NCBI RefSeq assembly: GCF_004010195.1 | Contig: NC_057746.1 | Span: forward strand, 17,603,327 to 17,667,326 | Length of the DNA: 64,000 bases | Direction of reading: 5' to 3' | Source of the DNA: Chiloscyllium plagiosum | Taxonomy: Eukaryota | Shown: piece after piece, positions 51,476 through 60,638 of the stretch | Numbering within the stretch: position 1 is the stretch's first letter | How the letters are laid out: each line of letters starts with the position of its first letter | Notes under the pieces: generated by a model | Seen by the model: the letters and a program-made list of their open reading frames with translations, nothing else | Told to the model about the DNA's origin: nothing | Database searches by the model: none | Position numbers and translations under genes: made by a program

Positions 51476-51513
51476 TTACTCCTTATTATTTCGCAGCATC
51501 AACAATGATGGTC
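51476..51513 (-). CDS. Activating NCR3-like receptor, terminal exon (GPSLLMLRNNKE*)
   Basis: Strong acceptor ttttttcttttcag|, phase 1, stop at 51476-51478. Confidence 0.72.
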
Positions 51514-51858
51514 CTGAAAAGAAAAAAAAGATATCTGCATAAAAATCATACTTTAAACTTGGGATTGTACAATATGGGTGAAATGAACTGGCCATGCTAA
51601 ACTGCCCATAGTGTTCAGGGGTGTATCGGTTAGGTGCATTAGTCAGGGGTAAATGTAGAGTAATAGGGTAGGGGAATGGGTGTGGGTTGGTCACTTTTCA
51701 GAGGGTCAGTGTGAACCTGTTGGGCCAAATGTCCTGTTTCCCCACTGTAGGAATTCTGTGATTCTAGTGTAAATGCTGAGTTAGAGTAAGGTTTTATAAC
51801 AAAGCAATTGTTCTCAGTCACACAGTGAAGGATTTGAGATTATATAAACAACACCTAC

Positions 51859-51981
51859 CTGAAGCTTTATGTTGTAGGAAGATGACAGTGACTGTGAAGG
51901 AAAACAGTGCCAGCACAATCACCCTTATGGCGATATGCAGTGGGCCCAGAGAATTCGATGGTTGTGTTTGGTTCCTCGCTG
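51859..51981 (-). CDS. Activating NCR3-like receptor, stalk plus TM exon with Arg
   Basis: cttccttccag| ... CAG|GTAGGT; encodes AARNQTQPSNSLGPLHIAIRVIVLALFSFTVTVIFLQHKAS; phase 1-1. Confidence 0.82.
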
Positions 51982-52864
51982 CTGGAAGGAAGCCAAGGTT
52001 ATTGTCATTGTCCCTCTTCTCCTCACTTCCACTATCACCACAGCTATGACAATTATTGAATCCTTTTGCCCTCCAAAGTTTGAGTTAAAAATGCATCTCA
52101 CTAAAATGTGACATTGGAAACTTGTCATGTCTACCTAGAAATTAATGACTGATGCAACAATGCTTCTCAATTGTAACCCATTTCACTTGCTGTTGCATCT
52201 ATTAAGAAATAATATTGGTGTAAAACAAACCAGTCTCCTGCTCAACAACATGGATTAAGAGGATGCTGGCTTGGCTAACATTTGTGGTCCATCGCTTATT
52301 GCCCTGGAAAAGGTGGTGGAGAGCTGCTGTTTTGAACCGCTACAGACATTGCAGCATAGGCATCCATGATACTGCTGGGCAGCAAGGTTCAAGATGTTGA
52401 TCTAGCAAAAGAGGAGGAATACAATTCCATGGGAAATGTAAGTGGGTTGGAGGAGAATTTGTAAGTAGTGATGTACCCATGCATCCAACGCCTTGTCCTT
52501 CTCAGTGGTAAAAGTCCCAGGTTTAAAAGAAGCAGGGTAAGGAGCTTTAATGTATCCAGTAGATGATATAAAATGCAGTCATTGTGCAACTGTATGGGGG
52601 GATAAATTATTGGCAGTGGATATGGTGCTGATCAAGTGAGATGTTTTGTTTGGATGGCACCCAGCTTATTGAATGTTATTGGGTCTGCACCCATCCTGGC
52701 AAGTTGAAAGTATTGCATTATGTTCCTGTTTCATTCATTGGAGATGATAGACACATTTTGGCAAAACGGGAGGTGAGTTAGTTAATACAAAATTCCTAGC
52801 CTCTGATCTGCTTCGGTGTGGACTTGTTGGGCTGAAGGGCCTGTTTCCACATTGTAATCTAATC

Positions 52865-56934: not shown

Positions 56935-57273
56935 CTGTCACAATAAGTGTTGTTCCTTCTCCATAATATTCACTGTTTGAGACAAATTCCACTTTACAGT
57001 AATAGGTCGCCTGGTCGCTCAATGTCACCTTTGTTAGTTGAATCCAGGCGCCCATCTTTCCATCGATTTTCTGCCTGTCTGGCCCAATGACCCGGCCTCT
57101 GTATTGTGCTGAGCGGTTGCAAAGCTCGGTTCCTCCTTTACTGTCCCTGAACCACCTGAAGACACTTGGCCCATTAGACCCTTCATAAAAACAGTGCATA
57201 GCGGCTGTGTTCCCCTCGGTTATATTCATAGATGCCGGGCTTTGAAGAACTTTGGTGTTCGCAGCGCTCATTG
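56935..57273 (-). CDS. Activating NCR3-like receptor, TM-proximal VJ Ig exon
   Basis: AMHC, VFRWF, DQATYYC and YGEGTTLIV motifs; ttttacag| and G|GTGAGC; 339 nt; phase 1-1. Confidence 0.92.
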
Positions 57274-60200
57274 CTGTAAAAGAATAAACACTGTTAAAGT
57301 GAAATCTCTCTGTGTGGTTAGACATGTTCAAACTTCCACTCCTCAAGTTCCGCATTGAAACACCAACGTCACGATGTGAGCTCCCCAAATTCATTTGTTT
57401 GTTTTAAGACAGTAACAGCTTAAATAAGCAAATAGATCTCCTGCTCTAATATCTGTCAAGGATATGCCATGTTTTCAAAATTAGCTATTTAATATTTAAA
57501 TAAATTTGTTAGCTCGAAAATATACAAAACACATTATCACATGAGATTTAGAAGCAGATTTGGGCTATTCTGCCCATCTCGAAGCTACTCCACCATTTTA
57601 AGATGGCTGATGTGTTTCTCAACCCCATTCTCCTCCCTTCTACCCATAACCATTGATCCCCTTACTGATATAGAACTTACCTATCTCTGTCTTCACGGTG
57701 CTCAATGAATTGGCCACGAAAGTCTTCTGAGTTCCAGATTCACTATCCTGCAGCTGAAGAAATTCCTCCTCACTTCAATTCAACAGGACCATCCCTTCAC
57801 AGCGAGTCTGTGCCCTAGAGTCCTGGTCTCTACGACTCGTGAAAACAACTTCTCCACCTCAATTCAATCTATCAGCATTGTGTAAGTTTCAATCAGCACC
57901 CCCATTCATCCTTCTGAACTCCATGGACTCCAAACCCAGAGAGCTCAACGGCATACCATTTGACAAACCCTACATTCCAGGGATCATTCTTGTAAACATC
58001 CTCTGGACCCCATCCAAAGCGAATTTAAAATTAAAGTCGAGAATATGTAGCTTACATCCACATTCCGGAAGTAACGGACGAGTAGAAAAGCACTCTTCAA
58101 AATTGTCTCCACGTCTACTCTATTCAGGCCTATCAGTATTCTATTGGCTTCAATCAGATTCCTATCCACATCTCATCGTCCTTCTTAACTCTGTCAGTAC
58201 AGAGTCACCTGGACTGCTCCTCATATGACAAACCCTTCATCCTAAGGACCGTTCTGGTAAACGTCCTCTGGACCCCATCCAAAGGGAATTTGAAATTAAA
58301 ATCGGGTATATTCTGGAAATAACAGGCATGTTAAAAAAAACTCTACAAATTGAGAGGAAATGCACTATATTGATCGCTTCATGATAATGTCAATTGCAGC
58401 ATGCATTCAACAGAGAAAAAGTAGATGGTGAGACTCAAAGATAGAATTGATCTGAGTTTTTTTTTCTCAGTCTCTGGGTAAGCGACTGCTTTAAGTGTGT
58501 TGCAGCAACTTTCATTCATTTGTTGATTTTCTTTATATTGGTTATTTTGGCTTTTGTAAAGCGATTATAGTGTTTCCTCCGGACCTTTAACAGTATGTAA
58601 ACTAGGTGATATGTTAACTTTCTGTCACTGCTTAAAACAGGCGATATCAGATCTGGCACAGTTCCACAGCTTGACTTAATTCGTTGCCTTTCTGTTTTAA
58701 CAGGGGACATTGAGTTTGGCTGTAAAACAGATTCCATCCACTATCCTCCTGTATATATTATTGCCAGAAGACACATCTTCCTCACGAGGTTTAAGCGTAA
58801 CCCACTCCACTTTTGCCTGGAAAACACCGCAACGGTCTTCCCTGCTTACTGTTTGCTTGATGCTAGCACAATGAAGCACTGCAGTTCGTTATTTACGAAC
58901 ATCATGTAGTGGCGTGAATCAATTGAAAATGATATTCTTCTGCTGAAGTTTACAGATTATAGCAGCCCCAGACCAACCGACCACATTGCTGTTTCTCTTA
59001 AGGTTTGAACATTCCATATGAAGCTTGATTTCCTACTTCAATTAACACACAACGTTGACCTTGTCAGAGCTGGCCACCTCCCAATTCTTTTTTTAAATGT
59101 AGTCTTTAAAAAGGTTAATTTGAAAGCACTGTTAACCTGAGTTTAGGATTAGGAGATCCTGAGCAGATTGCAAGTCGACTTTGGAAGAATCAGAGGCAGT
59201 TACTTTGAAAGATTTTGAATTCTTTGAGATTTTACACTGTCAAAAGTCACAGGATGGTACTAGAGAGCATCTTTAGGCATCAGAATATCAGAAGGGGCTG
59301 ACCATTCAAGGCTTCAATTAAGACAATTTTCTCACTTCATTTGTGAATAGTCTCAATTCTACATGAGGGAACGGCTGTGGATGAGATCCAATTGAGAATG
59401 AGAGAGCTAGCATGCATAGAGGTCTTGTGGTGCAGTGATAGTGTCCCTACTTTTAAGCCAGGAGGCTTGGGTTCATTTCCTACCTGTTCCAGAAGTAGGT
59501 AATGACATCTCAGAACAAGTTGCTTAATTGCTTTTCTCTACAATCCATGTAGATTGGAGGTATGGAGGCACTAATCAAAGGATCTGGGGCATAAGATGAA
59601 ATGTAGTTTCTGCAAACATTTCCACATTGATAAAATTGGGTGTGGGGAAGACATAGAGGAAGCATATGGTCACATTGAAATGTTATTCCTGTTTTTTACA
59701 GTTTTTTTTACAGATTATGTTACAGTGTGGAAACAGGCCCTTCGCCCCAACAAGTCCACACCGACCCGCTGAAGCGCAACCCACCCATAGCCCTATATTT
59801 ACCCCTTACCTAACACTACTTACAGATTACGTTACAGATTTTGATTGAACTCTGGAAATGTTACACACAGAAAAGGCCATTCAGCCCATTGTGTCTTCAC
59901 CATGAACAAACCTCCTATTCCAATCCCAGTTTCCAGGACCTGCTCTGGAGCTGTACTGATTCCACCACATCTACAATCTTTTTATAGGGGTTGAGGGTCT
60001 GCTACAATCAACAAACTGGGGTGGCAAATTCTAAGCACCCAACAACGATTTGAAACAATTTGAACTGTCATGGCGACCCTTGTTCTTAGTTTTTTGTTAT
60101 ATGCTGCATATAATTCAACATATAGACATAAGAGGCCATTCTTTTATGATGACCAATTCATCTTTATTTTGATGCCAACTCATTCAGAGAGGCTATTAAC

Positions 60201-60299
60201 TTGAGCCCTGTCATCTTCGCCGGGAGGTAGGGACCATACTACTGCCCCACAAGAACCCCACTATTCACCTTTCAAACTTACAGCGTGCAGCATGCTCAC

Positions 60300-60638
60300 C
60301 TTTCACAATGAGTGTTGTTCCTTGTCCATAATATTCACTGTTTGAGACAAATTCCACTTTACAATAATAAGTCGCCTGATCGTTCATTGTCACCTTTGTT
60401 AGTTGAATCCAGGCGCCCGTCATTCCCTCGATTTTCTCCCTGTCTGGCCCAATGACCCGGCCTCTGTATTGTGCTGTGCTGTTGCAAAGTTCGGTTCCTC
60501 CTTTCCTGTCCCTGAACCACCTGAAGACACTCGGTTCATTGGATCCTTTGTACATACAGTGCATAGCGGCTGTGCTCCCCTCGGTTACATTCATAAATGC
60601 CGGGCTTTGAAGAACTTTGATGTTCCCAGTACTCATTG
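60300..60638 (-). CDS. Activating NCR3-like receptor, distal VJ Ig exon (duplicate)
   Basis: AMHC, VFRWF, DQATYYC and YGQGTTLIV motifs; ttttacag| and G|GTGAGC; 339 nt; phase 1-1. Confidence 0.92.

Follow-up and report, generated by a model that had tools for sequence, protein, structure and literature searches.

Human NKp30 has a single immunoglobulin (Ig) variable (V) domain, is linked to the major histocompatibility complex (MHC) and lacks a signalling motif of its own; the arginine in its transmembrane (TM) segment binds CD3zeta/FcRgamma, and its isoforms differ in the tail, according to the available portion of PMC6514059. NKp30 is named among the VJ genes of the MHC in an excerpt of PMC10751288, and an excerpt of PMC12227049 treats NCR3 as a non-rearranging, MHC-linked VJ gene, with eight NCR3 accessions among the nurse shark genes. 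For Chiloscyllium plagiosum, MHC genes are given as enriched on one chromosome in the accessible text of PMC7677710. Here we describe a 64,000-nucleotide (nt) stretch of C. plagiosum contig NC_057746.1 (the window, positions 1-64000, corresponding to G000:C37:17603327-17667326, with C37 standing for this contig), whose minus strand carries what by its sequence is an NCR3/NKp30-like gene with two V exons, V1 and V2. Its most probable history, to which we assign a probability of about 0.78, would be that an NCR3/NKp30-like gene gained its second VJ exon via intragenic tandem duplication and makes, as likely main product, a leader-V1-V2-TM protein, predicted to be an adaptor-dependent activating receptor. 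The original prediction had read the two exons as a possible switchable cassette with Dscam/protocadherin-like logic, from which V1-TM, V2-TM or V1-V2-TM forms could be spliced.

Exon layout and tandem duplication

The elements of the gene are listed below. Extended positions carry the window numbering past 64000 into the next 60 kb, up to 124000, a stretch with two N gaps; X1 and X2 are putative RNA contig sets described in the following section.

60300..60638, minus strand: V1, single-exon VJ-type Ig V domain, 339 nt, phase 1-1; transcribed (X1 record 7, X2 records 12-13)
56935..57273, minus strand: V2, second VJ-type V exon, 339 nt, phase 1-1, 90.6% nt identity to V1 (X1 record 5, X2 record 11)
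51859..51981 (or 51978), minus strand: stalk and TM exon (X2 record 10)
51476..51513, minus strand: short cytoplasmic tail exon, its stop ending at 51476
60639..64000, minus strand: part of the first intron lying in the window; the whole intron has 7,947 nt
G000:C37:17671912-17671954, equal to extended positions 68586-68628 (L001:4586-4628), minus strand: candidate leader (signal peptide) exon, 43 nt, phase 1, 4.6 kb past the window end
55792..61411: intragenic tandem duplication of a ~3.3-kb unit found by self-BLAST, with copy B at 55792-58340 and copy A at 59005-61411

Both V exons have open reading frames between polypyrimidine-AG acceptors and GTGAG donors, differ at 32 of 339 nt with residue changes in 20 of 112 full codons, and match the Pfam V-set model (E 3e-13 for V1, 1e-13 for V2). 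The original prediction was right in this respect, having described two open 339-nt phase 1-1 exons with intact splice sites and 20 residue differences, and equally in placing no leader or TM exon between them and a single TM/tail downstream. A candidate scan and a DNA search with two family leaders returned no leader-like exon between V1 and V2, a scan for hydrophobic exons found no TM-like phase-1 exon in the 3,026-nt V1-V2 intron, and no second DNA copy of the TM exon was detected within 124 kb. The TM exon encodes a helix with an Arg close to its N-terminal end, and the tail exon adds 12 residues up to the stop without an immunoreceptor tyrosine-based inhibitory motif (ITIM), AATAAA signals following in the 3' untranslated region (UTR). 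Because of the TM Arg and the short tail lacking an ITIM, we infer a receptor of the activating type.

Several smaller observations concern these exons. The TM exon is preceded by tandem AG acceptors (51984-51978), of which the NCBI model of the gene, P0001, uses 51981 and an RNA contig fits 51978, a difference of one residue. Just before this acceptor, at 52056-52015 (minus), a short hydrophobic stretch followed by basic residues lies in another frame (E 0.05 to a relative's TM) and is probably due to chance. Hydrophobic candidates at 52925, 55476/55329 and 62473/62419 were rejected as TM exons as they show no family similarity, the one at 52925 lying antisense inside a LINE copy. Upstream of each V exon the reading frame stays open for ~130 nt; the in-frame ATGs found there were discarded as protein starts, since by inspection they are followed by no hydrophobic signal peptide.

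The V exons owe their likeness to the tandem duplication, whose copies are ~80-86% identical (self-BLAST; flank divergence 0.15-0.24). The duplicated unit contains a V exon and its intron flanks only, and the TM exon is single, so that an own leader or TM exon for each V, the arrangement named as speaking against a shared cassette, is not what the locus has. Frameshift-size gaps number 30 in 1,789 aligned flank nt and 0 in the V exons (P about 0.003), and synonymous divergence between V1 and V2 (dS 0.162, with nonsynonymous dN 0.085) is like that of the flanks; both exons have therefore likely been kept open since an old duplication. As the copies sit in a diverged tandem duplication with gapped flanks and gap-free exons, the doubled V exon is neither a product of chance nor an assembly artefact.

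RNA contigs and the leader exon

X1 and X2 derive from two samples of one study; their RNA nature is a guess, and no run containing the V2 stretch is recorded as RNA. They were compared over window positions 50500-64000, a region swamped by repeats, and the results below come from 16 of the 11,158 pieces and 15 of the 153 joints. X1 record 5 (369 nt) consists of the 3' half of a V exon with two other letters, one unaligned letter and then the 5' half of V2; compared with V2, its first 174 nt hold 2 mismatches, letter 175 mismatches as well, and the following 194 hold 0. A reconstruction in which the 3' end of V1 is followed by the 5' start of V2 predicts exactly 369 nt, 2 mismatches, the mismatch at letter 175 and 0 thereafter, while a V2 circle predicts 0. 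In X2 record 11, which is 247 nt long, V2 begins at letter 56, and TM likewise begins at letter 56 of X2 record 10. A graph simulation of V1-V2-TM at k=31 gives 247/56 and 56, equal to records 11 and 10, whereas mutually exclusive or mixed models (C-F) predict 215, 193, 221 and 329, and unspliced DNA predicts 319 and 449; k was deduced from 30-nt overlaps, and for X2 records 10 and 13 the total lengths were taken from the data rather than predicted. Neither the V2 acceptor nor the TM acceptor shows a branch in the X2 pieces. X2 record 12, 152 nt with 4 other letters, is consistent with a collapse of the two small V1/V2 bubbles, X2 record 8 falls in the 3' UTR, and purely intronic contigs at depth 2-3 represent unspliced background. 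V1-V2-TM is thus present and appears to be the dominant form; low-level skipping to V1-TM or V2-TM is possible, because both exons are symmetric (phase 1-1) and contigs drop rare variants. Two single-cell runs compared over the same positions, X11 (~2% read) and X12 (no piece aligned), had no depth at either V exon and hence gave no test of them. The NCBI model P0001 likewise reads V1-V2-TM-tail, starting at the Met of V1 without a leader; the evidence supporting that model was not seen. AlphaFold run on P0001 without an alignment gave a pLDDT of 37.7, too low to be informative.

The candidate leader exon past the window comprises an ATG, 14 codons and 1 nt, with a GTAAGC donor. Its residues are identical by eye at 10 of 14 positions to the leader of horn shark P0005, and 27 of its 43 nt to the leader of a paralog containing a third close V exon, V3. 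It was selected from 32 leader-like candidates listed upstream of V2, the other 31 being dropped by eye for weak donors or for being unlike family leaders. The same scan recovers the leader at 15833-15875 of a plus-strand gene in the window, and because this leader matches the start of nurse shark NCR3 P0025, the scan does recover true family leaders. We infer that the leader exon is spliced to V1, and the predicted product, leader-V1-V2-TM-tail, is likely ~292 residues long. Of the proposal to inspect the sequence beyond 64000, the search for a leader succeeded and that for further V units did not: the expected additional cassettes are absent up to extended position 124000, apart from the two N gaps, and the leader exon lies there instead. 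Genome searches at the protein and at the DNA level (12 of 122 candidates matching; 3 strong of 8) yielded three close V copies, namely V1, V2 and V3.

Family membership, an inhibitory-type paralog and multi-V relatives

P0001 is labelled in the database as a C. plagiosum 'SIRP beta-1-like' protein. Its nearest relatives come from white shark (P0002), catshark (P0003) and horn shark (P0005); they are NCR3-like models with one V and an ITIM-like tail, and V1 shares 50-60% identity with them, against 37% with nurse shark NCR3 QTT61898.1 (P0025). The family profile finds human NKp30 as top single domain in the PDB (E 3.7e-16), with SIRP-beta1 a close second (2.1e-15). A tree of 63 V domains (11 V exons fetched from this genome plus domains above 40 bits from 29 chosen database proteins, other matches being left out) unites V1, V2 and V3 in a 100/100 clade nested within a 100/100 clade with those NCR3-like models; the join of this clade with nurse shark NCR3 is supported at 92/79, and SIRP, the sole outgroup, falls outside. 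The V exons are of the non-rearranging VJ type, their 339 nt including a J-like strand. No exact 12-spacer recombination signal sequence occurs in the window, and one weak near-match in 18 kb lies inside a repeat. The contig also bears MHC class II alpha-like C1 exons, 7-16 Mb away at 1.35 and 10.55 Mb (C1-set; 2 of the 5 listed C37 matches checked). A Pfam MHC_II_beta search of the genome returned no match, although it also found nothing in any control, and none of the 150 candidates scored, out of 625, is a C1 match at this locus. These comparisons place the gene in the shark NCR3/NKp30-like VJ-exon family.

The third V copy resides in a complete gene with a single V:

G000:C37:18560088-18560426, opposite strand: V3 exon of a single-V gene, 0.9 Mb from the V1-V2 gene
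G000:C37:18558831-18566740 (L009-L010): V3 gene, with leader at 18558831, TM exon at 18561580 and two ITIM-like tail exons

ITIM-like motifs take the form I/L/V/S-x-Y-x-x-L. The V3 gene carries two of them, in tail exons that match P0002/P0003/P0005, and a TM without the inner Arg, whereas the V1-V2 gene combines a TM Arg with a short tail. V3 is 92.6% identical to V1 and 92.9% to V2 at the nt level across the V exon only: identity ends ~20 nt into each intron, the introns share dispersed repeats only, and the TM exons of the two genes cannot be aligned as DNA. dS between V2 and V3 (0.069) is lower than between V1 and V2 (0.162; p 0.09). Gene conversion with V1/V2 has likely homogenised the V3 exon, although a recent transfer of the exon would leave the same picture. 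Paired opposing receptors are described as showing such homogenisation, confined to the exon that binds ligand, in the available parts of PMC3210942, PMC5701461 and PMC5112662. The V1-V2 and V3 genes thus likely form an activating/inhibitory pair with a near-identical binding domain.

Multiple V domains recur in the family. Taking one per gene model, we count 2-5 V domains side by side in 5 of the 16 named relatives from elasmobranchs, and several models of amphibians and bichirs are likewise multi-V:

Horn shark XP_067865773: NCR3-like model, 3 V
Catshark XP_038671255: NCR3-like model, 2 V
Devil ray XP_062903898 and XP_062903900: NCR3-like models, 5 V and 2 V
Sawshark: NCR3-like model, 2 V
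Frog: multi-V NCR3 models

Every V is kept in 3/3 horn shark and 2/2 sawshark annotated isoforms. Because the multi-V relatives fall in other subfamilies of the tree, doubling of the V exon recurs independently in the family, the present duplication being one such independent event. P0010, with two V domains and a TM between them, was taken to be two genes fused in one model and left out of the count.

Further family members occur nearby. The plus-strand gene at window positions 15833-27470, convergent with the V1-V2 gene, is a second NCR3-family gene with V exon at 18518-18859, TM exon at 21589-21714 and an ITIM-like tail exon near 27367-27470; it groups with nurse shark NCR3 P0025 and Chiloscyllium punctatum P0017. 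Two clusters on C37 (18.49-18.61 Mb and 26.63-26.86 Mb) contain seven more divergent NCR3-like V exons, and at G000:C37:18605409 (L014, minus) the last 24 codons of a V exon are repeated directly behind that exon. Elsewhere in the window, an intronless 307-residue rhodopsin-family G-protein-coupled receptor frame occupies 2124-3044 (minus; 7tm_1, E 3e-13), and broken retrotransposon copies, which we take to be LINE-like, lie in introns and between genes at 52800-54730, 62800-64000, 19700-21100 and 38350-40800.

Competing explanations and comparison with known systems

According to the explanation that we favour, the RNA joins V1 to V2 and the leader-V1-V2-TM receptor would reach the cell surface as main product. 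It would be activated via an ITAM (immunoreceptor tyrosine-based activation motif) adaptor bound at the TM Arg (CD3zeta/FcRgamma, as for NKp30), with the second V acting as a spacer giving added reach or as an extra binding site. Its partner would be the single-V ITIM paralog at G000:C37:18.56 Mb, the V exon of which conversion would have kept like V1/V2, so that both receptors would see similar ligands and give opposite signals. A number of points weigh against this account. None of the joints read is an exon junction, the V joins being deduced from piece geometry, and the RNA support consists of two low-depth contig sets (depth 5-9) from a single study, assembled by a procedure that drops rare variants. 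X2 by itself fits a V1-TM transcript plus a V2 circle equally well (model G), and X1 alone separates the two. X2 record 10 continues 207 nt past the TM donor (51859-51652), the TM-to-tail splice being unseen, and X2 record 13 includes 114 nt of the intron before V1 (60752-60639) at depth 8.6 with no branch to a leader, the leader splice being unseen as well; the latter piece may be unspliced RNA or mark an intronic start site before V1. Purifying selection on V1/V2 is just marginal by dN/dS (0.085/0.162, p 0.07), a runs test of V3 as a V1/V2 mosaic gave 13 runs in 31 sites (p 0.14), and the multi-V relatives are known from gene models, not cDNAs. As a separate observation, read-through of the TM donor in X2 record 10 would, if real, create an alternative 13-residue short tail, comparable to the tail isoforms of human NKp30.

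Substantial amounts of V1-TM, V2-TM and V1-V2-TM made by regulated or cell-specific splicing we consider unlikely. Any skip would stay in frame, given two symmetric exons with near-identical splice sites, and minor forms could be hidden in the contigs; V1 is nevertheless joined to V2 in X1 record 5, the lack of branches in X2 runs contrary to models C-F, and with two exons, one leader, a 3-kb intron and in-frame double inclusion there is no steric or frame barrier to using both. The annotated isoforms of multi-V relatives also keep all V domains. Among the three predicted forms, V1-V2-TM accordingly fits the contigs and the other two are without support, rare skipping being possible, and the switchable logic gives way to V1 spliced in frame onto V2 across that intron behind one shared leader. 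We also give little credence to its wider version, RAG-free diversification, with cells choosing V1, V2 or both on one activating module and V exons reshuffled by conversion with the inhibitory twin; unless skipped isoforms are abundant, the locus represents ordinary Ig superfamily evolution and no new diversification system. That the gene is decaying or leaderless, with transcripts starting in the intron before V1 and yielding neither a signal peptide nor a surface receptor, seems quite unlikely. X2 record 13, which model J would break, the NCBI model beginning at V1's Met and the dN/dS p of 0.07 all favour it; set against them are a family-type leader exon that is intact, has a strong donor and has no other V exon to serve, the lack of stops and frameshifts in V exons bordered by gapped flanks, and the intronic background, while assembly may have clipped a short leader branch. 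Two separate genes, or an artefact of collapsed haplotypes, are scarcely credible: no observation speaks for them, the flanks are just 80-86% alike with many indels, there is no second leader or TM, and V1 and V2 are joined in RNA.

Under the favoured account of a duplicated VJ exon, the shark NKp30-like family seems to include an activating/inhibitory pair in which the binding exon stays alike as the rest of the genes diverge, a pattern also seen in the Siglec, PIR and NKG2 pairs of mammals that adds detail to the evolution of natural killer cell receptors, and it would grow multi-domain receptors by repeated exon duplication. A literature search that did not reach the family's main paper found none on such a pair or on multi-domain growth for shark NCR3; Kinlein et al. 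2021 reportedly treats shark NCR3 subtypes and may already describe such forms. The analysis further corrects the database name SIRP-beta1-like and supplies the leader missing from the NCBI model.

Compared with Dscam1 and the clustered protocadherins, the locus shares tandem look-alike exons upstream of one constant part. Mutually exclusive exons, only one variable exon entering each mRNA, are the defining trait of Dscam-type clusters in the accessible text of PMC8042237, whereas here V1 joins V2 and there are only two exons. Exclusivity is not forced, because the V1-V2 join is in frame; nothing found in the gene enforces an exclusive choice, and the Dscam-like reading fails this defining test. 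Clustered protocadherins have an own promoter and signal peptide per variable unit, unlike the leaderless duplicated unit, although an intronic start before V1 is possible. SIRP-beta1 resembles P0001 in V-set similarity (E 2e-15) and an activating-type TM, but SIRPs have a V-C1-C1 ectodomain and V domains outside the clade, and P0001 reads V-V-TM without C1 domains.

The paired receptors KLRC/NKG2, PIR, Ly49, Siglec-11/16 and CEACAM1/3 combine, like the present genes, a near-identical ectodomain exon with divergent TM and tail of opposite sign (PMC3210942, PMC5701461 and PMC5112662, in the sections available). Unlike those pairs, the putative partners here are separated by 0.9 Mb and face opposite ways on the two strands, and one of them has two V domains. 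The multi-V NCR3-like models share tandem V domains in one protein, as from intragenic exon duplication, but belong to other subfamilies, and several bear long tails with Tyr motifs. Shark NCR3 members (P0025, P0003, P0005, P0002) have the same single-exon VJ V domain, leader-V-TM-tail plan and MHC-bearing chromosome; they differ in having one V exon against two here, and P0002/P0003/P0005 also in their ITIM-like tails, against a TM Arg and a 12-residue tail here. With human NKp30, its top single-domain PDB match, the gene shares the TM Arg, the lack of an own signalling motif and MHC linkage, and differs in having two V domains where NKp30 has one and varies, in the isoforms studied, by its tail (PMC6514059, available portion). 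On domain grounds the two V domains bar the name 'NKp30 ortholog', not membership in the wider NCR3/NKp30 family, because multi-V forms recur among its shark, ray and frog members.

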